From: Alphaproteobacteria bacterium UBA1185
Lineage (GTDB): Bacteria; Pseudomonadota; Alphaproteobacteria; Rs-D84
Direction of reading: 5' to 3'
Length of the DNA: 64,000 nucleotides
Assembly (NCBI GenBank): GCA_002310415.1
Contig: DBYN01000006.1
Span: 219,249 to 283,248 of the forward strand
Program-made: the position numbers and the translations under genes
Notes under the pieces: model-generated
The model's database searches: none
The model's input: the letters and a program-made list of their open reading frames with translations, nothing else
What the model was told of the DNA's origin: nothing
Shown here: positions 21,591-51,042 of the stretch, in pieces
Position numbering within the stretch: the stretch's first letter is position 1
Layout: each line of letters opens with the position of its first letter

Positions 21591-22628
21591 TTAGTCATTT
21601 GTGGCTTCTGCCGGTATATTACCATCTTCTGACAATAACACAGCGATCCAACGGGTAGATTTAAATTGAGCCGTTGTAATATATATGCCAGCCAAAATAG
21701 GGACACTGAAAAACATTCCTGCAATTCCCCAAAGCATACCCCAAAATACTAGGTTAATAAGTATTGCCAATGTTGAGATATTCAGGGTTTTTCCTGTTAA
21801 TTTTGGGTCAAGAATATTGCCAAATACAATTTCAATACCAATTAAAGATGCTGCTGTTAGCAAAGGTAAATGCCAGGTCTCCCCCCCGCTTATAAAAGCG
21901 TATGCAATTGGCATCGCACAGGCAAGAATGGAACCAAGTGTTGGAATATAATTTAATATGAAAATCATAAATGCCCATACACTAGCAAATTCTAATCCGA
22001 TTATTCGTAGTGCAATATACGCAAAGATACCTGTTGCAGCAGAAATAAACGTCTTTGTAAATAGATATTTTTTCATGTGTTCGTCAATGCTGTTTAATAT
22101 ATATCGTAATTTTTTTGACTTTGTTTGAGATGTTGTTAATGAATGTAGTTTGTTGCTAAATGAACTTTGTTCAATGAACATAAAGATTAAATATATCAAT
22201 ACCATGCCAATAGATGTTGCAATACCGGCAAGTGAAGAGGCAACATATGTTGCAATATGTGGTATGTTCGGAATTAAATTTAAATCTAATTTTATACCAA
22301 TTTTAGAAGAAACAAATTCACCAAATGTTAACAGTTTTTGCTGTAATAATGGGGTTGCTTTATATAATTCCCAAAACATAGGTTTTATTTGGGTCGCAAA
22401 TAAAAATATAATTCCGCCAATTGTTGCAAATGATAATATAATAGACAGCCAATTATAAATCTTGGACGGTCTGACATCAGAATCATGATATGGCATAATT
22501 TTTCTGTAATATGTGGCAATTGCATTCAACAAATACCACAAAAATGCTGCAAATAAAATTGGAATAAACAACGAACGTCCTATCCATAAACATAATATCA
22601 AAACGATGCATGTTACAAACTTATTCAT
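21591..22628 (-). CDS. AI-2E family transporter (PerM/YhhT-like permease)
   Basis: 345 aa polytopic membrane protein. The C-terminal region GMLWGIAGMFFSVPILAGIYI is typical of the family. Confidence 0.7.
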   Translation of the reverse strand: MNKFVTCIVLILCLWIGRSLFIPILFAAFLWYLLNAIATYYRKIMPYHDSDVRPSKIYNWLSIILSFATIGGIIFLFATQIKPMFWELYKATPLLQQKLLTFGEFVSSKIGIKLDLNLIPNIPHIATYVASSLAGIATSIGMVLIYLIFMFIEQSSFSNKLHSLTTSQTKSKKLRYILNSIDEHMKKYLFTKTFISAATGIFAYIALRIIGLEFASVWAFMIFILNYIPTLGSILACAMPIAYAFISGGETWHLPLLTAASLIGIEIVFGNILDPKLTGKTLNISTLAILINLVFWGMLWGIAGMFFSVPILAGIYITTAQFKSTRWIAVLLSEDGNIPAEATND

Positions 22629-26324: not shown

Positions 26325-27200
26325 ATGTTCCAAAAAATTTGTTTGTTTGCGACTTTGGCTTGTTTTTCTGGGGTTGCTTTTGGTGTTGAAAAATTGCCTC
26401 AGGTTGTTACATCTGAAGTATTTTATGAATATGAACCTGCACAGTATGCTGTTCAAGAAAAAGAAATTGTTACACAAAATCAGGTTACCCAGGTTCCTGT
26501 ATGGCCACTTGCTGGCTCGGACGCGGATTTTAAGATTGCTTGTGATGATATGGGGTGTGCGGACAATGTCGCACAGCCGGTTGTGGAATATGATTTTAAC
26601 GCAAGTGGTACTGGTTGGTCTGGTGGACCCGATATTGATAACGGTCGTCCTGTTCCGGCTGGGTTTGATAATGAATGTGAAAATAATGCGGAAATGCCAT
26701 TATTAAGACGCGAAATGTTGGAAGATGATGGTGGGGCGGTATTAGCCGTTTCGCGTAGTGCGCGTAAAAAATGTAACAAAAATTCGGATTCGTATGCTGT
26801 ATTTGCGGAACGTGCCGGTTTTGCAGCAGAAAAAACTTGTGATAAATCTGCTGTTGTTGACGAAGCCGAGATAGATGTTATGATTGATACAGATGAAAAG
26901 ATAAGTGAATCTAATGATGAACAGGCACCTGTGAATATTCGTAATCAAGTTCGTTCTTGGGTTGTTGCAAGTGGTCAAACGTTACGTCAGGTTTTACAGT
27001 CTTGGTGCGACAGGGAAGGTTGGGATTTGGTTTGGACTACATCGCGTGAATACCCTATAGAAGCCAGTGCGGTATTCAAAGGTCGCTTTGTGGATGTGGC
27101 ATCTGCGTTGGTTAGAAATTTTGAGCGTGCTACACCAATACCTTATGCGAAATTTTACAAAGGAAATCGTGTAATAGTTGTTTCAACATCGGAAGAATAA
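26325..27200 (+). CDS. TcpQ/PilL-like secretin-associated protein (C-terminal TcpQ-type domain)
   Basis: Signal peptide MFQKICLFATLACFSGVAFG. The C-terminal SWVVASGQTLRQVLQSWCDREGWDLVWTTSREYPIEASAVFKGRFVDVASALVRNF...KFYKGNRVIVV matches my recollection of the TcpQ domain pattern (W-v--G-tL---L--W----GW-lvW ... f-G-f--Av--L ... y-gN-vlvV). Confidence 0.6.
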   Translation: MFQKICLFATLACFSGVAFGVEKLPQVVTSEVFYEYEPAQYAVQEKEIVTQNQVTQVPVWPLAGSDADFKIACDDMGCADNVAQPVVEYDFNASGTGWSGGPDIDNGRPVPAGFDNECENNAEMPLLRREMLEDDGGAVLAVSRSARKKCNKNSDSYAVFAERAGFAAEKTCDKSAVVDEAEIDVMIDTDEKISESNDEQAPVNIRNQVRSWVVASGQTLRQVLQSWCDREGWDLVWTTSREYPIEASAVFKGRFVDVASALVRNFERATPIPYAKFYKGNRVIVVSTSEE

Positions 27201-27223: not shown

Positions 27224-28858
27224 ATGAAGATGAAAATGCGTTTGAAAATGTTTTTAACGGGTTTGTTGATGATGGGGGCGTTGGCGGGTTGCACTTTGCA
27301 AGAATCTGCCAAGGTGTCGGCATCTGTTGATCAAAACTTTGTAAAAGCATATGAAGCATTTGAAATGGCGAAAAATCCGCGTGCCAAGGTTGCTAGTGGT
27401 GATACGGTTTCTGTATCAGAAGGTGTTTGGTTGGGTAATAAATCTACGGTTTTGGAACATAAAAATACGTTGCCTGCTAAATTTGAAACTGATACAGGAA
27501 TTACGATTTTATTGAACGAGCCAGTAACGTTACAGGTTTTGGCAAATGATATAAATTCTATTACCGGTATTCCTGTCAAGATAGATAACCAGGTCGATTC
27601 GGAAAAGTTAAGAAAGACAGTTGATGTTGCGTATACTGGAAAGTTATCTGGTCTGTTGTCGCAAATTGCAACTGATTTAGATTTGTTGTGGTATTATGAC
27701 AAAGATGCGATTGTATTTTATGAAACAGAAACGCGGACATATACATTATATGCGCTGGGTACGGATGTATCATATCAATCTTCGGTTCAAACAGACGATG
27801 GAAATCAGGTTTCTTTGGAATCCACATTAAAAGAATGGGATGAAGTTGAATCAACAATAAGTTCAATTGTTAATTCATCTAAAAATTCTCAATTTACTGT
27901 TTCACGTAGTTTAGGAACAATCACAGTAACTGCATCGCCATCTGTGTTAAACAGGGTTGCGGAATATATTGCAAAACAGAACAAACGCTTGTCTCAGTTG
28001 GTAACCATAGATGTCAAAGTGTTACAAGTGTCTTTGTCTAATGAATCTGCATTTGGGTTGAATTTGGCGGCTGCGATTAATTCTGCATCTGGATTGAATA
28101 TAGTTGCAAATCCAAAAAATAATTTAGCGACCACAGAAGCAAGTTCTATGAATGTTGCTGTTTTATCTAATACAGTTTCGGCTTTGACAGGTGCAACACA
28201 TGGTGATGGATTAGAAGGTGCGTATACAAACGATCAAATTATGAATGGTTCTATGGCACGTGTGGCGGGAACAAATGCTTTGATAGAGGCTTTGGCAAAA
28301 CAAGGTAAGGTTTCTTTGGTGACAAATGTTGGTGTTACAACACGTAACAATCGTGTTGCACCCGTAACAAATACCAGAACAACTGGATACATAAAACGGT
28401 TTGAATCGCGTAATTTTACAACTGTTGAATCCAGTACGGTTGACCAAGATAATTTGGAAACAGGTTTTTCAATGCAATTGTTGCCTAACGTTTTGGAAAA
28501 CGGCAAGATTTTATTGTTGTTCAAAATGTCTATTCGTGAATTGTTAAGAATGTCAACTCAGACGATTGGTGATCAAATGAAAGTAACACTGCAATTACCA
28601 GAAGTAGAAGAACGTTCGTTTATGCAAGAAGTTATTATGGAATCTGGTCAAATGTTGGTAGTATCTGGATTTGAAAAGCAAAAGAATAATGATACACGTT
28701 ATGGTTTGGGGGATCCTGATTTTATGGCGTTGTCTGGGTCGCGTGAAACAGCAGCATCACGTGAAGTGTTGGTTGTTATTTTGACGCCTCAGGTTTTGGT
28801 TAGCCCGATGGATGCAGAACGTAATATTCAACAACATTGGGGCGCACCATTAAATTAA
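27224..28858 (+). CDS. lipoprotein secretin, type IVb PilN/TcpC-like
   Basis: Lipobox GALAGC. The secretin C-domain features are VTIDVKVLQVSLSNESAFGLNL, ...QMLVVSGFEKQKNND... and GLGDPDFMALSGSRETAASREVLVVILTPQVL. Confidence 0.75.
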   Translation: MKMKMRLKMFLTGLLMMGALAGCTLQESAKVSASVDQNFVKAYEAFEMAKNPRAKVASGDTVSVSEGVWLGNKSTVLEHKNTLPAKFETDTGITILLNEPVTLQVLANDINSITGIPVKIDNQVDSEKLRKTVDVAYTGKLSGLLSQIATDLDLLWYYDKDAIVFYETETRTYTLYALGTDVSYQSSVQTDDGNQVSLESTLKEWDEVESTISSIVNSSKNSQFTVSRSLGTITVTASPSVLNRVAEYIAKQNKRLSQLVTIDVKVLQVSLSNESAFGLNLAAAINSASGLNIVANPKNNLATTEASSMNVAVLSNTVSALTGATHGDGLEGAYTNDQIMNGSMARVAGTNALIEALAKQGKVSLVTNVGVTTRNNRVAPVTNTRTTGYIKRFESRNFTTVESSTVDQDNLETGFSMQLLPNVLENGKILLLFKMSIRELLRMSTQTIGDQMKVTLQLPEVEERSFMQEVIMESGQMLVVSGFEKQKNNDTRYGLGDPDFMALSGSRETAASREVLVVILTPQVLVSPMDAERNIQQHWGAPLN

Positions 28859-28948
28859 AATATAATTATACAAAAACAAAGATGCGCAAAAATTATGAGT
28901 AGGTATGCAAAAGTACATGAACATGCTGGAAATCGCAGAAACCTATAC

Positions 28949-30316
28949 ATGCAATCAAAGCGTTGTCTGATGGTTTTGGTTTTTGTGATGGGGTTGCATA
29001 ATATCGCTTTGGCTGCAAGTTGGGACTATCCATGTGAAGCAGTTAAATGTGGACCTGGATCGTATTTCTCAAGTAGTGACAATAGATGTAAAAAATGCAC
29101 AGAAGTTAAAGATACAGAGTTACAATCAGTTGGTGTAACAAAGGATATGTTGTGGTGTCCAGGGTATATGAGTGATTGTAATGATAAAAAGAATGGTTTA
29201 CATACGTGTGAGTCTTATATAAGAAATTATGATGACAACTATGAATGGTTTTTGGAAAATAATAACACGGACGAAGGTTGGAAAGAATTTACAACAGAAG
29301 TGGCTTGGTCACCCACAGTACAACAAAACCAGGAAAGAGAGGATTATCGTGATGAGGTTGTTGGTGTCAAATATGTTGCAGATGCCCTTAATGATTACAA
29401 AAAGTGTAAATTAACCGAGGTGCATTGTAAACCAGGGTACTATTTGCCAAAAAACACTGATAAATGTGAATTTTGTTCAAATGAATTCAGGAAATATTGT
29501 CCAGGTGGTTGGTATGAAGTAGAACAATCCAAAGATCAAGGCGTGTATGATTGTGATGCTTCAAAAATAACTGGTAGGTATCATACTGCATGTGTGTCTT
29601 GTCCGGATGGTATGCGAGCCAACTCGAATGAGGACAAGTTTATTTGGTATGATGTTATGATTAATGGTTCAAAGGCGGACTCATCAGATAGAGCGTTACG
29701 AAATATAGCTTGTATCAATAATAATGGATATGGTAAACATTATAAAGTTGAGTGTGGTAATGAGTTATCTAGTGACCCTGATTATAACAAGAAAAATGGT
29801 ATTTGGGGGTTGTGTGAAGAAGAAATTGGAGTGGCATCGTTACCTATCCAAAAGCAACATATTGAGATGGATAGAGTATATTTAAATGACAACTCAATCG
29901 TCGGTATAGAAATAAAAACATTCCCTGGTTCTGTGTACTATAACGGTACATATGTAAAATGTGCGGATTATCCAGAATTTGCAAAGGTGGCCAAAGAAGC
30001 ACGCATGTATTGCCCAGGAAATTGGGTAACAAAGGATGCAAATGGCAATTATCCAACCCCATTACAACAAATGAAACAATGCCCACCCAAAAAAGAGCCG
30101 AATGATGATTTATCCGGTTGTGAATGTATGTGGAAAGATAAGGGAGCCACAGAAACACCTGAGGGTGAGTGTATTCATAAAGAATTAAAATTGGGATATA
30201 AAGATTTATATTACGGACCATTTTGCAAAGATGATCCGACATGTCCATTGTTTAAACAATGTTGGACCAAGTTTAATAACAAAGCAGCATACAGAAAATG
30301 TATGGGCTTTGATTAA
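28949..30316 (+). CDS. secreted cysteine-rich protein with furin/TNFR-like repeats
   Basis: Signal peptide MQSKRCLMVLVFVMGLHNIALA from ATG 28949; the track ORF starts at 28895. I count 28 Cys in the mature part. Repeats are KCGPGSYFSSSDNRCKKC, HCKPGYYLPKNTDKCEFC, YCPGGWY, YCPGNWV and WCPGYMSDC. Confidence 0.6.
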   Translation: MQSKRCLMVLVFVMGLHNIALAASWDYPCEAVKCGPGSYFSSSDNRCKKCTEVKDTELQSVGVTKDMLWCPGYMSDCNDKKNGLHTCESYIRNYDDNYEWFLENNNTDEGWKEFTTEVAWSPTVQQNQEREDYRDEVVGVKYVADALNDYKKCKLTEVHCKPGYYLPKNTDKCEFCSNEFRKYCPGGWYEVEQSKDQGVYDCDASKITGRYHTACVSCPDGMRANSNEDKFIWYDVMINGSKADSSDRALRNIACINNNGYGKHYKVECGNELSSDPDYNKKNGIWGLCEEEIGVASLPIQKQHIEMDRVYLNDNSIVGIEIKTFPGSVYYNGTYVKCADYPEFAKVAKEARMYCPGNWVTKDANGNYPTPLQQMKQCPPKKEPNDDLSGCECMWKDKGATETPEGECIHKELKLGYKDLYYGPFCKDDPTCPLFKQCWTKFNNKAAYRKCMGFD

Positions 30317-30795: not shown

Positions 30796-31437
30796 ATGAT
30801 AAATATTTTTTTTAATGCCTATACGATTTCTTTATTAATTGCTTATCTTTTGGGATCAATACCCTTCGGCATTATTGTTGCAAAATTATTTCACAAGGGT
30901 GATTTGCGCAAAATCGGCAGTGGAAACATCGGTGCGACAAATGTTATGCGGGTCGGTGGGTTGCGTTTGGCTGGTTTGGTGTGGGTTTTAGATATGGCCA
31001 AGGCCATGTTAGCAGTTTGGTTGTGTAGTAATGTTGGCTCGGCGACATTTGGGTATGAATATATCCCAAGTGTTGCTTTGGTTTATGGGGCTTGGGGTGG
31101 ATTTATGGCGGTTGTTGGGCATTGTTTTCCAATATGGTTGAAATTTCATGGCGGTAAAGGCGTTTCTTGTTTGTTTGGTGTATTATTGGCGATAAATCCA
31201 ATGTTGTTCGTTGTTTGTGGGGTTGAATGGTTATTGGTTGCTTTGGGATCTGGATATTCATCTTTGGGGGCAGTAGTTACATTTTGTTTTATGCCTTTGT
31301 TTGGTTTCTTTACAGGTTTTGATATGGGAATTGCTTTCTTGGCAATTGCTTTGCTTTGTTTATGGCAGCATCGCGCTAATATTTTACGTTTGATTTCTGG
31401 CAAAGAATCAAAAATAGAATGGAAATGGAAAAAATAA
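30796..31437 (+). CDS. plsY: glycerol-3-phosphate acyltransferase PlsY
   Basis: 213 aa membrane protein with GSIPFG and GSGNIGATNV motifs. Confidence 0.9.
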   Translation: MINIFFNAYTISLLIAYLLGSIPFGIIVAKLFHKGDLRKIGSGNIGATNVMRVGGLRLAGLVWVLDMAKAMLAVWLCSNVGSATFGYEYIPSVALVYGAWGGFMAVVGHCFPIWLKFHGGKGVSCLFGVLLAINPMLFVVCGVEWLLVALGSGYSSLGAVVTFCFMPLFGFFTGFDMGIAFLAIALLCLWQHRANILRLISGKESKIEWKWKK

Positions 31438-34246: not shown

Positions 34247-35524
34247 ATGCAAGCAGCAACAAAACAAATTGCAAATATAGAATCAATAAAAATGGCAATT
34301 TCTGCCAGAATAGGTTCTGCGGGTTTTACTTCTTGGATTTTGCCTTTACGATTTGAAGTTGTTGATGATTGTTTGAATTTGGGTGCACATAATCAATTTG
34401 CTGCTGATTATATTAAAAATGTTTATGGTGAAATTCTTTCTGATATTGTTTCTGAATTTTCGTTGAATTTGAATATATATGTTTGTTCATCTGGTAATGT
34501 TGTGAATACCGCAAATGATAATGTTGTTTGTGCATATACACCGGAACCAAAACAAACAGTTGTTAAACATAAAAATGGGTTTAATTATTTTGTATGTTCT
34601 GATGAAAATGCTTTTGCTATGGCTGCATGTAAAAAAATAGCATCTGGTAATGCGCCTTTTTCTCAATTGTTTATATATGGTCCCAGTGGTTGTGGTAAAT
34701 CTTTATTGGCATCTGCGATTTGTAGCGAATCATCGGGTCATGTTGTTATGATGTCTGGGGGACAATTTGTTTTTGAATTTACTCGCAGTTTGCGCGATAA
34801 AACTATATTCGCATTCAAAGATTTTTGTCGTAATTGTGATACTTTTATTTTGGATGATGTGTGTGCGCTGGCGGGCAAGCGTGCGACAACGGATGAATTT
34901 TTACAATTGGTTATGGATTTACATAATATGGGTAAAAGGATTGTTTTGACATCAACTGTTGCACCAAATGCTTTGAATGGTTTTGACAGACGTATACAAT
35001 CTTTGTTTGCATCTGGTTTGGTTGTTGATTTGGTTGCACCAAATGCGTATGTTCGTCGTCAGATGTTGGTTCGGGGCGGTGTTGAAAGTGGTGTGGCTGA
35101 TGAGTTATCTAAACGAATCGCGGCTGATGGTCATTTAGTTGATGGTGTTATAAATAAAATTAAAACATATACTGAATTGATGGGTGAACGTGTTGATATG
35201 GAAGTGGCTGCGAGATTGTTGGGTGATACATTGGCAAAAAATAAAACACCAATTATGATGGTTAAATCTATGTGTGAAAAAATGTGTGTATCGTACGATG
35301 AAATATGTGGTAATTCACGTGCGCGTCGTTTGGTTCGTGCACGTCAAATAATGATGGCTGCTTTGAAAAGTGCGACAAATATGTCTTTGACAGAAATTGG
35401 TACTGTTTGTGGTGGTCGTGATCATGCAACGGTTGTTTATGCATTGAATCAAATTGAAAGTCAAAAAGAATCAGATTTAATATTAAATGCAGAATTGGAT
35501 GACATGATAAAAATTTGTAAATAA
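34247..35524 (+). CDS. dnaA: chromosomal replication initiator DnaA (divergent AAA+ motifs)
   Basis: ATG 34247 is preceded by AAGGAG. The N-terminal domain has FTSWILPL...NQFAADYIKNVY. Walker A-like GPSGCGKSLL and Walker B FILDDV are present. The domain IV HTH reads SRARRLVRARQIMMAALK...LTEIGTVCGGRDHATVVYALNQIE. Confidence 0.8.
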   Translation: MQAATKQIANIESIKMAISARIGSAGFTSWILPLRFEVVDDCLNLGAHNQFAADYIKNVYGEILSDIVSEFSLNLNIYVCSSGNVVNTANDNVVCAYTPEPKQTVVKHKNGFNYFVCSDENAFAMAACKKIASGNAPFSQLFIYGPSGCGKSLLASAICSESSGHVVMMSGGQFVFEFTRSLRDKTIFAFKDFCRNCDTFILDDVCALAGKRATTDEFLQLVMDLHNMGKRIVLTSTVAPNALNGFDRRIQSLFASGLVVDLVAPNAYVRRQMLVRGGVESGVADELSKRIAADGHLVDGVINKIKTYTELMGERVDMEVAARLLGDTLAKNKTPIMMVKSMCEKMCVSYDEICGNSRARRLVRARQIMMAALKSATNMSLTEIGTVCGGRDHATVVYALNQIESQKESDLILNAELDDMIKICK

Positions 35525-35562
35525 TCTGAATATACCAGTTTGCTTTGTGCCAGAAGGGGAAA

Positions 35563-35596
35563 GACCCCACCAAACAAAACGGTGGGTGTTTTTTTA
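35563..35596 (+). terminator. rho-independent terminator after dnaA
   Basis: CCCACC-AAACAAAAC-GGTGGG hairpin followed by TGTTTTTTT. Confidence 0.6.
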
Positions 35597-35672
35597 TTTG
35601 CAATAATGTGCCATATAATCTATACTTGGCATCAAAAGGAAAGCAACGTTTGTAACAAGAGAGAATAAAAAG

Positions 35673-37217
35673 ATGAAAACGCTGGAACCCGCAGAACTCT
35701 ACACACACACACACACACACACACAACTAAAGCGTTGCCTGGCATTTTTATTTTCTGCGGTCTTGTTTGTTTCGTCTGCGTTTAGTACAACTCTTCCATC
35801 TGGTTATACGGAATTAGAATACATTGAATCAACAGGAACGCAATATATTGATACTGATTTTGTATATGATAATAACACCAGGGTTGTTTGGGATATACAA
35901 TTAACAGCACAAATTCCTTCATCTGAAAGTAATAATTCTGGTGTTGGATGGGTTAATAATGATTATGAAAAATTGGGTTTTACAATTAATAAAGATGATT
36001 CAATGTTACGTGTATACAAAGCATTTGCGGCTGAAGCAAATCCCGCTGGAGATACAAGACTTGCCACAATTCAAGTACATAATAATCGTCATGTAATAGA
36101 AATAAATTCACCTATAAACAAAGCATATGTAGATGGTGTTGAATATACATTTGATCCTGCAGTAGGTGATATAAATAATGACTATAATTTAACATTACCT
36201 TTATTTGCTTGGTTAGGCGGGACGGGATATAGACAATATTTTATAGGAAGAATGTATTCTGTAAAAATTTATGACAATGGAACACTAGCAAGAAATATGA
36301 TACCTGCTAAACGCAATTCTGATAATGCTGTAGGTATGTATGATACCATAAATGATGTATTTTATACCAATTCTGGCACAGGAAGTTTTACAGCAGGTCC
36401 AGAAATAACACTTCCAGAATACATACCGTTGGAGTATATTGAAAGCAGTGGAACACAGTATATATGTCTTAATTTTGGTTTTGATAAAACAGACGAAATA
36501 GAAACTGAATTTTCTATTCAAGACACTGATGTTTGTAACAAATATATGGTTGGTACAACAAGCTGGAACACCAATAACAATAGATTTGGAATGGGAGAAC
36601 ATTGTTGGGATTCCACATATAATTTTGCTTATGGTTCTGCTGACAATAGGAATACAAGTTTGTCGCCGCACAGAAGTTTGGACGGACAAATTCATAGATG
36701 GTTTTACAAAGATCTTGTAGTTTCTATTCCAGAACTTTCTACAAGTTTGGATGTTTCGGGTATAACTTTTGGTGGAACCACTACGAACTTGCGGTTGTTT
36801 TACGGCGGGATTAATGGTAGTGTGACAACAGGCAAGATGAAGTATTATAAACATATTAAAAACGGAACAGTTGTGTTTAATGGTATTCCAGCTAAAAGAA
36901 AATCTGATAATGTAGTTGGATTATATGATTTAGTTGGTGATACATTTTATACTAATTCAGGTACAGGTGATTTTATAGCGGGACCTGAAGTAGTAGACAG
37001 TACATGTACAAGTGCAACAGTTATGGGTGAAAATGTCTGTTTAATAGATACAGAACCAAATGGAGATTATATAAATGTCAGATATAATAATGAACAATAT
37101 TATTTAATGCTGGATTCAGAAAATGACTATCCAATACATGTTGGTTCAAGTAATAAATTAAAAATAATAACAAATACCGCTACCTATAACGTTCATGATG
37201 CATCAGTTGTGGAATAA
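35673..37217 (+). CDS. secreted two-module lectin/tail-fibre-like protein, putatively phase-variable
   Basis: 514 aa reading M-K-T-L-E-P-A-E-L-Y-(TH)3-T-Q, then signal peptide LKRCLAFLFSAVLFVSSAFS. Two homologous modules span aa 41-244 and 247-440. Each starts LP..Y..LEYIES(T/S)GTQYI and ends IPAKR.SDN.VG.YD...D.FYTNSGTG.F.AGPE. Confidence 0.7.
   Translation: MKTLEPAELYTHTHTHTQLKRCLAFLFSAVLFVSSAFSTTLPSGYTELEYIESTGTQYIDTDFVYDNNTRVVWDIQLTAQIPSSESNNSGVGWVNNDYEKLGFTINKDDSMLRVYKAFAAEANPAGDTRLATIQVHNNRHVIEINSPINKAYVDGVEYTFDPAVGDINNDYNLTLPLFAWLGGTGYRQYFIGRMYSVKIYDNGTLARNMIPAKRNSDNAVGMYDTINDVFYTNSGTGSFTAGPEITLPEYIPLEYIESSGTQYICLNFGFDKTDEIETEFSIQDTDVCNKYMVGTTSWNTNNNRFGMGEHCWDSTYNFAYGSADNRNTSLSPHRSLDGQIHRWFYKDLVVSIPELSTSLDVSGITFGGTTTNLRLFYGGINGSVTTGKMKYYKHIKNGTVVFNGIPAKRKSDNVVGLYDLVGDTFYTNSGTGDFIAGPEVVDSTCTSATVMGENVCLIDTEPNGDYINVRYNNEQYYLMLDSENDYPIHVGSSNKLKIITNTATYNVHDASVVE
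35701..35724. repeat. perfect (AC)12 dinucleotide microsatellite inside the 5' coding region
   Basis: Read directly: ctct-(ac)12-aactaa. It lies between ATG 35673 and the signal-peptide codons. Confidence 0.98.
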
Positions 37218-37231
37218 GGTTGACGAGTTAT

Positions 37232-38368
37232 TTAAAACCAACCTTTCTTTTCAGATTTGATTCCTGCAAATTCGCTTAATGCTTTCTTTTGTTTTTCGGT
37301 TAATTTTTTGGGTACAATAACACCTGTTTCAATGTACAAGTCCCCAAATCCACCACGTCCATTTGGCATACCATGTGAACGAATTCTTAAACGTTCGCCA
37401 ACCTGGGTTCCAGACGGTATTTTTACAGATAATTTTTTATCATCAATTGTTTCAATTTCTACTTCGCCACCCATTGCCAATGTCGGAAAATCTATATCTA
37501 TGTGCATCAGCAAATCATCGCCAACCCGTTCGAATTTTTTATCTGGTTTAATACGGATGTCTAGATAAAAATCGCCTGCACGACCGCCATTTGGACCCGC
37601 TTCGCCCATGCCAGCCAAACGCAATCTTGCGCCATCTTGGATTCCTGCTGGGATTTTTACATCCAATGTACGTTGTTTGTTAATTGTTCCAATTCCACCA
37701 CATGCGGTACATTTTTTATCAATTTTGCGACCCAAGCCATTACAGTCTGGACAAGGGGTTTCCACAGCAAAAAAGCCCTGACGTGCATGTACATAGCCGG
37801 TTCCGCCACATGTTTTACACGTCGGTGCAGGTTTGCCGTCGGCTGTGCCGTTGCCATTACATTTTTCACATTTCACAGCACTTGAAAATTTTACTGTATG
37901 TGTTGTGCCAAAAAATGCATCTTTTAACTCAATAACAACTTCATCCAATAAATCCCGACCGGATTGTTGTTGTGTGCCGTTACGACGGTCGCCACCAAAA
38001 CCACCGCCAAAACCAAAACCACGCATGGCTTCGCGTAAAATGTCTTCCATTCCGCCCATATCGCCGCCACCCATATTAAAGTGAAAGGCACCATTACCAA
38101 ACGGATTACCACCAAATCCAGCGCCTGCACTTGCGCCATTACCGCCGGCGAATGCCGCATCACCAAATCTGTCATACGCAGCGCGTTTTTGTGGGTCTTT
38201 TAATATATCAAAAGCGTTGTTGACTTCTTTGAATTTTTCTTCGGCAGTTTTATCGCCCGGGTTTTTATCAGGATGATATTTCATAACCAATTTGTGATAC
38301 GCTTTTTTTATATCAACATCGCTAGCATCTTTTGTAACACCCAATATTTCATACGGATTTTTGTTCAT
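37232..38368 (-). CDS. dnaJ: molecular chaperone DnaJ
   Basis: J domain (YEILGV...HPDKNPG), G/F-rich region, and four CxxCxGxG motifs (CEKCNGNG, CKTCGGTG, CPDCNGLG, CTACGGIG). Confidence 0.92.
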   Translation of the reverse strand: MNKNPYEILGVTKDASDVDIKKAYHKLVMKYHPDKNPGDKTAEEKFKEVNNAFDILKDPQKRAAYDRFGDAAFAGGNGASAGAGFGGNPFGNGAFHFNMGGGDMGGMEDILREAMRGFGFGGGFGGDRRNGTQQQSGRDLLDEVVIELKDAFFGTTHTVKFSSAVKCEKCNGNGTADGKPAPTCKTCGGTGYVHARQGFFAVETPCPDCNGLGRKIDKKCTACGGIGTINKQRTLDVKIPAGIQDGARLRLAGMGEAGPNGGRAGDFYLDIRIKPDKKFERVGDDLLMHIDIDFPTLAMGGEVEIETIDDKKLSVKIPSGTQVGERLRIRSHGMPNGRGGFGDLYIETGVIVPKKLTEKQKKALSEFAGIKSEKKGWF

Positions 38369-50102: not shown

Positions 50103-51042
50103 ACGCTTTGTTTGATGAACCCATAATATTTTTTATTTCATCTATACAATTTTGAGTCATTGCGTTCATTGCAGTCGTTAAATATTCTCGTGGGTTGATA
50201 ATGTTGGGGTACTTTGCCAGAGTTTCCCGAATACTTGATGTAAAAGCAAGTCGCGAATCGCTGTCTATGTTTATTTTTGTTATATGTAAAGTAATTGCTT
50301 GACGTAATTGGGCAGGGCTTATTCCGCGCGCAAAACTTATATCCCCCCCGAATTTATTTATTTTGGTTATGAATTTTTGTGGTATAGTAGATGCTCCATG
50401 TAAAACCAATGGAATTTTAGGAATATTTGTTGCGATTTGTTTTAGAATATCAAAGCGTAATTTTTCGTTTTCGTTTTTTCTTTTATAAAGACCATGCGAT
50501 GTTCCAATTGCGATAGCCAACGAATCGGTTTGTGTTTGTTTAACAAAATCGGCAACGATTTCTGGGTTAGTATAAGATTGTTTTTTGGTAAAAGTGCGTT
50601 CGTCTTCGATTCCAGCCAATACGCCAAGTTCTGTTTCCACAGACACGTTGAATTTGTGTGCATAATCTGTGATTTTTTTTGAAAGTTTTATATTTTCAGA
50701 TAAATGTAACGCGCTGCCGTCAAACATAACAGATGAAAACCCCGAATCTATGGCATGTTTACAAGATTCAAAACTATGCCCATGGTCCAAGTGTAGCGCA
50801 ACTTGATTTTTTTTGTATTTTGCGCCCCTAATCATACCCATTAAAATATCTGGTGTCATATATTCCAGTGCCGATTCGGACACTGCTAAAATAACTGGGC
50901 TATTTGTTTGTTCTGCGGCATTTAATATCGCGTTTAACGTTTCCATATTATAAAAATTAAAGGCAGGAACGGCATACCCGTTGTTTAATGCCCGTGTCAA
51001 TAAGTGCTTTGTATTTGTTAAACCAAAATCAGAATAGTGCAT
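50101..51042 (-). CDS. class II ketose-bisphosphate aldolase (fructose/tagatose-bisphosphate aldolase family)
   Basis: 313 aa with VPAFNFYN, LHLDHGHS and VLHGAS motifs. Confidence 0.85.
   Translation of the reverse strand: MHYSDFGLTNTKHLLTRALNNGYAVPAFNFYNMETLNAILNAAEQTNSPVILAVSESALEYMTPDILMGMIRGAKYKKNQVALHLDHGHSFESCKHAIDSGFSSVMFDGSALHLSENIKLSKKITDYAHKFNVSVETELGVLAGIEDERTFTKKQSYTNPEIVADFVKQTQTDSLAIAIGTSHGLYKRKNENEKLRFDILKQIATNIPKIPLVLHGASTIPQKFITKINKFGGDISFARGISPAQLRQAITLHITKINIDSDSRLAFTSSIRETLAKYPNIINPREYLTTAMNAMTQNCIDEIKNIMGSSNKA

Follow-up and report, generated by a model that had tools for sequence, protein, structure and literature searches.

A perfect (AC)12 tract between the start codon and signal peptide of a predicted lectin-fold protein: a probable phase-variation switch in an uncultured rumen alphaproteobacterium

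Anatomy and frame logic of the repeat in gene X

The stretch of contig DBYN01000006.1 analysed in this work (64,000 nucleotides (nt); hereafter the window) carries on its plus strand a gene for a secreted protein, gene X, in which a perfect dinucleotide repeat separates the start codon from the signal peptide. The open reading frame (ORF) of gene X (35673-37217) encodes 514 amino acids (aa). The leader with the start ATG (35673-35700, 28 nt; MKTLEPAEL-) holds the sole start codon that is open into the tract, and this ATG is located 28 nt 5' of the tract and in frame across it. The slippage tract, (AC)12A, extends from 35701 to 35725, and its 25 nt (ACACACACACACACACACACACACA) are 100% perfect. 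A Sec-type signal peptide, LKRCLAFLFSAVLFVSSAFS, is encoded at 35727-35786; it is probably cleaved after AFS and corresponds to a helix at residues 17-35 in the AlphaFold2 model. The mature protein, with the stop codon included, is encoded at 35787-37217. The N-terminus of the ORF reads MKTLEPAELY-THTHTHT-Q-LKRCLAFLFSAVLFVSSAFS-TTLPSGYTELEYIESTGTQYIDT…, with TTLPSGY… after the signal peptide. The perfect (AC)12 repeat 28 nt past ATG 35673 and before the signal peptide, which had been described in an earlier note on the window, was confirmed by sequence and translation. The final 12 nt of the leader, CCGCAGAACTCT (35689-35700), were kept in all copies of a 5' module (the cassette) that was also found in front of other genes.

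The chance occurrence of the tract was evaluated within the window, the G+C content of which is 35.5%. For (AC)8, which spans 16 nt, 0 matches were expected according to 100 dinucleotide-preserving shuffles of the window. The tract was the only dinucleotide repeat of at least five units in the 64 kb, and the homopolymers reached a maximum length of 9 nt. The earlier note had called the tract very improbable, and this judgement agreed with the shuffles and with the uniqueness of the repeat.

The effects of unit gain and loss were explored by translation. The gain of one AC unit gave …CAC AAC TAA, a stop directly after the tract (a TAA of the 35728 type), and the same reading is literally present in the leader of a related locus, L003. 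The loss of one unit gave …TKALPGIFIFCGLVCFVCV*, with a stop about 19 codons on. The hand translations of both events in the earlier note were correct. The ON state of gene X requires a repeat number (n) divisible by 3. The segment from the tract to the hydrophobic core of the signal peptide contained no in-frame ATG or GTG, and the single in-frame alternative start was TTG 35763-35765 within that core. Initiation downstream of the tract was rejected on these grounds. The claim that no downstream start exists except this TTG was extended by a scan of upstream starts in all frames, in which no start other than ATG 35673 was open into the tract within 200 nt. A role of the tract as a promoter spacer was rejected because the tract is located downstream of the start codon. 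A perfect simple sequence repeat that is long enough to slip is located inside the reading frame and upstream of the functional part of the protein, and (CA)n tracts of this length have a high slippage frequency in bacteria. Unit gain or loss would lead to a premature stop, with no start codon available to bypass it.

Repeat number in a sister species and in the window strain

The comparison of tract length in relatives, suggested in the earlier note, was carried out for a sister species with 80-83% nt identity to the window. The orthologue of X was located in the slot between dnaA and dnaJ, and a second locus was located 6 kb away. At the second locus (Locus A; gene order TcpQ, secretin, A, … plsY), an ATG lies 28 nt before the tract, and n was 12, 18, 19, 19, 20, 20, 20 and 20, with 12 and 18 in frame. 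At the slot of X (Locus B; dnaA, B, dnaJ), a GTG lies 19 nt before the tract, and n was 10, 11, 11, 15, 16, 16 and 16, with 15 in frame. The contigs came from different samples and differed at 0-8 substitutions per 5.7-8.3 kb, which corresponds to 99.7-100% identity. All alignment gaps among the sister-species contigs were inside the two tracts. Contig L022 and L019, a contig of the metagenome-assembled genome (MAG) RGIG2753, had 0 substitutions in 6249 nt and were one AC unit apart. Moreover, the two loci varied independently, with the (A, B) combinations (19,11), (20,16), (20,15) and (18,11). This pattern amounts to localised hypermutation, a concept used for contingency loci (PMC11868660), at the paralogous Locus A and the orthologous Locus B of the sister species.

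The tract might instead be a slowly evolving, tolerated low-complexity leader, the length of which diverges between lineages, and out-of-frame copies might be genes that are being lost. The sister-species alleles argue against this explanation, since they are separated by 0-8 substitutions per 6-8 kb and, in one pair, by a one-unit change with zero substitutions. The independent variation of two loci only 6 kb apart argues in the same direction. Furthermore, the Locus A and Locus B tracts, the longest of which reached 41 nt, were all perfect, and the OFF tracts were followed by intact ORFs. Live tracts, including OFF tracts of 39-41 nt, that run uninterrupted in front of intact ORFs would not be produced by neutral decay.

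The same variation was observed in the predicted proteins. In protein clusters formed at 90% identity, the mature parts were identical and the N-termini differed, exactly as frame changes would predict. The cluster of the X orthologue contained MEAAELY(TH)4T… (n = 15), an ORF in which the leader is read in a different frame (n = 11) and gene calls that begin in or after the signal peptide. The cluster of the paralogue contained MKTLKPAELY(TH)3T… (n = 12), a form with (TH)5T… (n = 18) and twelve contigs in which the gene call was truncated.

Polymerase chain reaction (PCR) stutter or repeat mis-assembly could also account for the tract or for its differences in length. PCR stutter is known for dinucleotide repeats, and six contigs (L001, L002, L016, L017, L019 and L020) ended at the cassette. 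However, the tract appeared in assemblies from NCBI, Logan, JGI and ENA, which were produced by different assemblers. Differences of 4-8 units far exceed stutter, and haplotypes recurred in different samples, (19,11) twice at 100% identity and (20,16) twice. PCR stutter was therefore excluded, and an artefact of either kind is considered extremely improbable.

The strain of the window was also found in the Logan assemblies of SRR5324858 and SRR094926, which matched the window at 100% identity over 8.7 and 2.7 kb, respectively. SRR094926 is a run of study SRP004875, which we take to be the 2011 cow-rumen metagenome. The dnaA-side contig from SRR5324858, L011, held the complete 25-nt tract. The value n = 12 was thus present in an independent assembly and is therefore no artefact of one assembly. 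The Logan contigs (k = 31) broke at the tract: L001 8644-8660, L002 2693-2709 and L011 4529-4559 (window 35700-35739). These breaks were asymmetric; the left contig included all 25 nt and 5 nt of the right flank, and the right contigs, from two samples, began with 17 nt of the tract. The contig ends were also considered as a sign of within-sample heterogeneity, of which they are suggestive but ambiguous, and this reading was set aside; the branches correspond neither to a simple minor-allele bubble nor to any known paralogue.

According to these results, the (AC)12 tract is probably the hypermutable element of a slipped-strand translational phase-variation (contingency) switch, a reading to which a probability of about 0.85 is assigned. 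The phase-variation reading of the earlier note is strongly supported by the conserved module, by n differences between contigs that are 99.7-100% identical and by the presence of ON and OFF alleles with intact ORFs. In the proposed mechanism, transcription would begin past the dnaA terminator, and ribosomes would initiate at ATG 35673. The 28-nt leader and the tract would be translated before the signal peptide is reached in frame. Strand slippage during replication would gain or lose AC units. At n divisible by 3 (12, 15, 18…), the pre-protein of X would be made and exported by the Sec pathway, and the leader and signal peptide would be removed. At any other n, translation would stop at the TAA directly behind the tract or some 19 codons further on, and no X would be produced. 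Since only n divisible by 3 joins ATG 35673 to the signal peptide, a clonal population would always mix X-positive (X-ON) and X-negative (X-OFF) cells, and several such loci per genome would generate combinatorial surface variation. The switch would be a single instance of a portable 5' module that is placed before several unrelated secreted-protein genes in the lineage. Switching of the window's own tract, its rate and its reversibility are what we infer, together with the destination of X and the selective agent.

The 5' module at other loci

The module is composed of a short leader ending in CGCAGAACTCT, the repeat (AC)n and a signal peptide of the type QL[K/R]RCLAF…. The module was found at the head of at least four unrelated secreted-protein genes in rumen and gut MAGs named "Alphaproteobacteria bacterium" and in one Candidatus Enterousia MAG. 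The mature proteins behind it were the LamG-type family of X, a family of about 155 aa (…FAVDACVPND…), a 319-aa Enterousia protein and a Cys-rich 473-aa protein of the window, the last of which follows a relic copy described below. All cassette tracts of RGIG2753 and of the sister species were followed by a signal peptide.

Contigs L003 and L004 were found in JGI metagenomes with a degenerate DNA pattern of the signal peptide. The cassette gene in these contigs lies after pgk and differs from X, and the tract is OFF with n = 14. The left flank …GCCGCAGAACTCT, the repeat (AC)14A and 61 identical nt of signal-peptide coding sequence are shared with the window. The ATG homologous to that of gene X runs into TAA after the tract, the frame of the signal peptide has a TGA upstream, and the 298-aa ORF behind the out-of-frame tract is intact. 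Contigs L006-L010 were obtained from the best 120 of more than 3,900 protein homologues of X, several of which contained a (Thr-His)n leader followed by the same signal peptide. In L010, n was 15 and the gene ON, with the dprA-dnaA-X-dnaJ synteny of the window. The context differed from that of the window in L008/L009 (n = 12, ON) and in L006/L007 (n = 15), where the frame was open only from a distal ATG, 97 nt before the tract. L018 was OFF with n = 10. The Candidatus Enterousia locus, L021, had n = 13 and was ON through a start codon in a different frame; therefore, the ATG found in L003-type leaders can be used for initiation. Leaders of this type (L003 9200-9305 and L006 3992-4097) have ATGs at 32 nt and 97 nt before the tract in different frames, and a full-length pre-protein could hence be obtained in two of the three repeat classes.

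The cassette pattern was scanned over the GTDB species representatives, and two genomes matched, namely RGIG2753 and Candidatus Enterousia sp. The MAG RGIG2753 (goat omasum, "Alphaproteobacteria bacterium", JAFRSF01) contained at least six cassette copies; the six found were on 5 contigs, and four of them were at contig ends (L016, L017, L019 and L020), where the genes are annotated as 'partial' by NCBI. In these MAGs, assembly breaks and truncated gene calls can be traced systematically to the cassette. The related DNA that was fetched, 233 kb in total, contained one (AT)5, and all its other dinucleotide repeats of at least five units were cassette tracts. No cassette was found in the IMG/VR viral contigs scanned with the pattern, and the module is therefore apparently not phage-borne in that collection. 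A profile search with the alignment of the 45-aa leader and signal peptide against 5.8 billion proteins gave nothing at E ≤ 1, the query being too short for a database of this size. In the OFF alleles, the tracts were perfect and as long as 41 nt, and the downstream ORFs of 154-480 aa were intact; these alleles look switchable rather than decayed. The same repeat appears at several loci per genome in front of surface or secreted genes, as would be expected of contingency loci.

Other mononucleotide runs were observed near cassette genes and in the window. A poly-C run of 8 nt lies about 100 nt upstream of the cassette gene in L006 (3888-3895) and L007 (2712-2719), and a poly-G run of 9 nt lies near another cassette gene (L020 535-543). 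In genomes of about 35% G+C, these runs are possible additional slippage tracts. The window contains C7 runs at 21881-21887 and 50343-50349, both inside ORFs.

The left flank CGCAGAA(C/A)(T/C)CT was kept in L003, L006, L008, L010, L018, L021, L022-L029 and the window (35689-35700). This flank is read in two frames, from starts 19, 22 or 28 nt upstream in one case and 32 nt upstream in the other; therefore, a constraint on the leader protein is no explanation for its conservation. The module might be chiefly recombinational, that is, a homology patch or a Z-DNA-prone patch for swapping 5' modules or gene bodies, with the frame changes as a by-product. The occurrence of the same module before at least four unrelated mature proteins and the conservation of the left flank despite two reading frames would fit this explanation. 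In addition, the leader of the window resembles the Locus A leader of the sister species yet occupies the Locus B slot, and a 106-nt segment of X (window 36888-36992) is 97% identical to the otherwise diverged paralogue in L003 (9900-10004). On the other hand, no recombinant junction was observed at a tract, and near-identical contigs differed by pure gain or loss of units with the flanks unchanged. A mainly recombinational role is thus regarded as very unlikely, and a recombination role and a switch role are not exclusive. Beyond the switch itself, the cassette may be portable, and recombination may carry it to unrelated genes of genome-reduced Alphaproteobacteria in the gut (Rs-D84/Enterousia-like), an idea that is put forward tentatively and is rather doubtful. 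If the cassette is portable in this manner, then the two-frame conservation of the left flank and the dual-start leaders would reflect selection on the cassette itself and not on any one protein.

The window contains one live cassette and one relic. The probable relic, GCTGGAAATCGCAGAAACCT-ATACATGCA-ATCAAAGCGTTGTCTG (28925-28969, plus strand), was recognised by flank match and synteny, and it heads a Cys-rich secreted ORF (28895-30316) with no Pfam match. Only 9 nt are left of the relic tract ATACATGCA, with an in-frame ATG (28948) within, and a normal signal peptide, MQSKRCLMVLVFVMGLHNIALA, follows. The flanks match the cassette, with the Enterousia variant CGCAGAAACCT as the closest form. 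The pattern that matches the relic was designed after both sequences had been seen, which makes its zero chance expectation optimistic. Synteny is a stronger argument than the pattern match; the neighbours of the relic are TcpQ (26325-27200), secretin (27224-28858) and plsY (30796-31437), and the sister species has the live Locus A in this slot. The segment is probably a decayed cassette copy whose gene is locked ON because the decayed tract contains an in-frame ATG.

Several observations weigh against the contingency-switch reading. ATG 35673 is preceded by a weak ribosome-binding site (AGAGAGA). The window strain showed only n = 12, both in the window and in the Logan assembly of SRR5324858. 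The left Logan contig extends past the branch point that would be expected from abundant alleles with n ≥ 13 or n ≤ 11; therefore, the population in SRR5324858 appears clearly dominated by one allele, n = 12. At Locus B, the n = 11 allele has an open frame from a GTG located far upstream, a start used by gene callers (P0152), and the ratio of ON to OFF may not be strictly 1 in 3 in loci with two-frame starts or a far-upstream ORF. Identical n was observed in the paired contigs L003/L004, L006/L007 and L008/L009, the samples of which are possibly not independent. The single allele of the window strain in two assemblies and the constant n at three loci in contigs paired across two samples would also fit the slowly evolving leader considered above, as would the decayed, locked copy at 28925-28969, and gene loss does occur in genome-reduced lineages. 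In view of the allele differences between near-identical sister-species contigs, the slowly evolving leader is judged unlikely, and the slipped-strand switch is preferred.

Product, genomic setting and significance

The structure of X was evaluated with AlphaFold2. The model was built with 48 homologues and had a mean predicted local distance difference test (pLDDT) value of 76, with values of 80-95 in the domain cores and lower confidence in the C-terminal part. Two beta-sandwich domains of LamG/ConA-like type were predicted, one at about aa 45-245 and the other at about aa 250-440, and the protein also has a conserved C-terminal part of about 75 aa. The Foldseek search against PDB returned laminin LG4-5 (E = 2.6e-6, probability 1.0) and neurexin LNS (probability 1.0) as the top matches, as well as sialidase lectin domains, and that against BFVD returned ConA-like and uncharacterised phage proteins (E down to 2.8e-12). 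The fold of both main domains matched these LamG/ConA-like proteins, whereas the identity to the structural matches was 10-14% and no Pfam LamG match was obtained. The whole-chain template modelling scores (TM-scores) were low, which is expected because the query has two domains. In the Pfam, NCBIfam, PHROG and PDB-sequence searches, no match to X was found. The exact sequence of X was without a database record, its more than 3,900 protein matches reached at best 47% identity, and no relative was found in the GTDB genomes by a protein-pattern scan with X.

X is thus predicted to be a secreted lectin-fold protein, and the modelled domains have the jelly-roll beta-sandwich of the LamG/LNS type. 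The support is at the level of fold, and sequence profiles did not place X in the LamG or ConA-like superfamily. The earlier note had proposed a secreted lectin/tail-fibre-like product; the signal peptide and the predicted tandem LamG/ConA-like lectin fold are in favour of a secreted lectin-like product, and no family could be assigned by sequence profile. X is probably an adhesin or a ligand-binding protein facing host immunity, phages or partner cells. The C-terminal module of about 75 aa (…RYNNEQYYLMLDSENDYPIH…NVHDASVVE) is common to X, the Locus A product and the L003 gene. This shared module, together with the 106-nt near-identity between X and the L003 paralogue, suggests mosaic exchange or gene conversion within the family.

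The gene order around X is dprA, dnaA, gene X, dnaJ (37232-38368, minus strand) and a gene for type IIA topoisomerase B. A start of dnaA supported by a ribosome-binding site is at 34247 and its stop at 35524, and gene callers use ATG 34172 instead. The exact DnaA sequence from the start at 34247 had no database record, and the version from ATG 34172 had one. A terminator-like hairpin of dnaA (CCCACC, 9-nt loop, GGTGGG and T-run; 35566-35595, plus strand) sits between dnaA and gene X. The hairpin was read directly from the sequence, and its loop of 9 nt is beyond the 8-nt limit of the automated hairpin scan. A promoter-like site (TTGCAA-17-TATACT; 35598-35626, plus strand) lies 47 nt upstream of the start of gene X; it is a consensus match only, and matches of this kind were no commoner than in shuffles. 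The dnaA-dnaJ slot (window 35524-37232) is variable among close relatives. The slot holds gene X in the window and the orthologue of X in L010; in L012 (3443-4711), it holds an unrelated 262-aa secreted gene without the repeat; in L005 (6137-6207), where DnaJ identity is at least 90%, dnaJ lies directly beside dnaA and the slot is empty. Gene X is, by this comparison, an accessory gene. The GC skew was positive throughout the window (1-64000; G 13271 vs C 9428) and showed no sign change at dnaA; therefore, the replication origin appears not to be adjacent to dnaA in this window.

The DnaJ and topoisomerase of the window clustered with proteins of MAGs named "Alphaproteobacteria bacterium", and the cassette-bearing relatives were ruminant-gut MAGs and one Candidatus Enterousia MAG. 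These relationships do not support the Rickettsiales- or Holosporales-like label of the earlier note. The organism of the window appears to belong to the uncultured order Rs-D84. This order includes Enterousia, whose genomes are mostly smaller than 1 Mb and lack the tricarboxylic acid cycle and respiration (PMC12306168).

Repeat-driven contingency loci are textbook knowledge in the cultured pathogens Haemophilus, Neisseria, Helicobacter, Campylobacter and Mycoplasma. In Helicobacter pylori, hopZ, sabA and sabB are Hop-family genes switched by CT repeats. The nearest analogues of the present switch are oipA and hopZ of this species and the opa genes of Neisseria. The loci described here resemble the H. 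pylori Hop genes (oipA/hopH, hopZ, sabA and sabB) in that a dinucleotide repeat occurs soon after the start, in or before the signal-peptide coding region, the frame sets ON or OFF, and one repeat type is present in several paralogous surface-protein genes per genome. The CT repeats of oipA are likewise located in the signal-peptide-coding region, and their number differs between isolates (PMC10564699). In contrast to the Hop genes, the unit is AC and not CT, the host belongs to Alphaproteobacteria and not to Campylobacterota, and lectin-fold and other secreted proteins are encoded instead of Hop beta-barrels. Moreover, the tract precedes the charged n-region of the signal peptide, whereas that of the Hop genes is inside it, the module is common to unrelated protein families, and the tracts are longer (10-20 units). 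With an AC unit, no Hop or beta-barrel similarity and an alphaproteobacterial host, the locus is an analogue of the Hop-family switches and not a member.

The opa genes of Neisseria, with about 11 paralogues, carry repeats of the pentamer CTCTT in the part that encodes the leader peptide. They share with the present loci the multi-copy arrangement, the repeat in signal or leader coding and the independent switching that leads to combinatorial surface variation; they differ in having a pentanucleotide unit and a single family (Opa beta-barrels) and in occurring in human pathogens. Localised hypermutation of a simple repeat within the reading frame is also common to the contingency loci of H. 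influenzae and C. jejuni, where the repeat type is different (tetranucleotide and poly-G) and where switching rates have been measured and reversibility demonstrated; for the present tract, both would follow by inference. Phase variation of Opa in Neisseria has been covered (PMC11868660), and the presence of many contingency loci in one small genome has been described as a 'phasome' (PMC11868660; PMC8437040), a concept that is common to those systems and the present loci. At the level of sequence, the locus in the window has the features of a contingency locus. In the literature on Enterousia, Rs-D84 and contingency loci in Alphaproteobacteria, no earlier description of such switches in this lineage was found.

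A known mechanism is thereby placed, with population-level allele evidence, in an uncultured alphaproteobacterial lineage of the rumen and gut, and the module is also present in Candidatus Enterousia. The sharing of one 5' module by unrelated genes, with a left flank conserved in two frames, is unusual, and the finding would be more novel if a portable cassette were confirmed. Such switches imply that these small-genome organisms are exposed to strong and fluctuating selection acting on their secreted or surface lectin-like proteins; host immunoglobulin A, phages or attachment to partner cells could be the source of this selection. Furthermore, the cassette marks specific genes as candidate interaction factors and accounts for the assembly breaks at these loci, and its sequence can be used as a marker with which phase states are countable in existing ruminant metagenomes. 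If the cassette is indeed portable, organisms with genomes of less than 1 Mb and few regulators would have a combinatorial and largely regulator-free means of surface variation.

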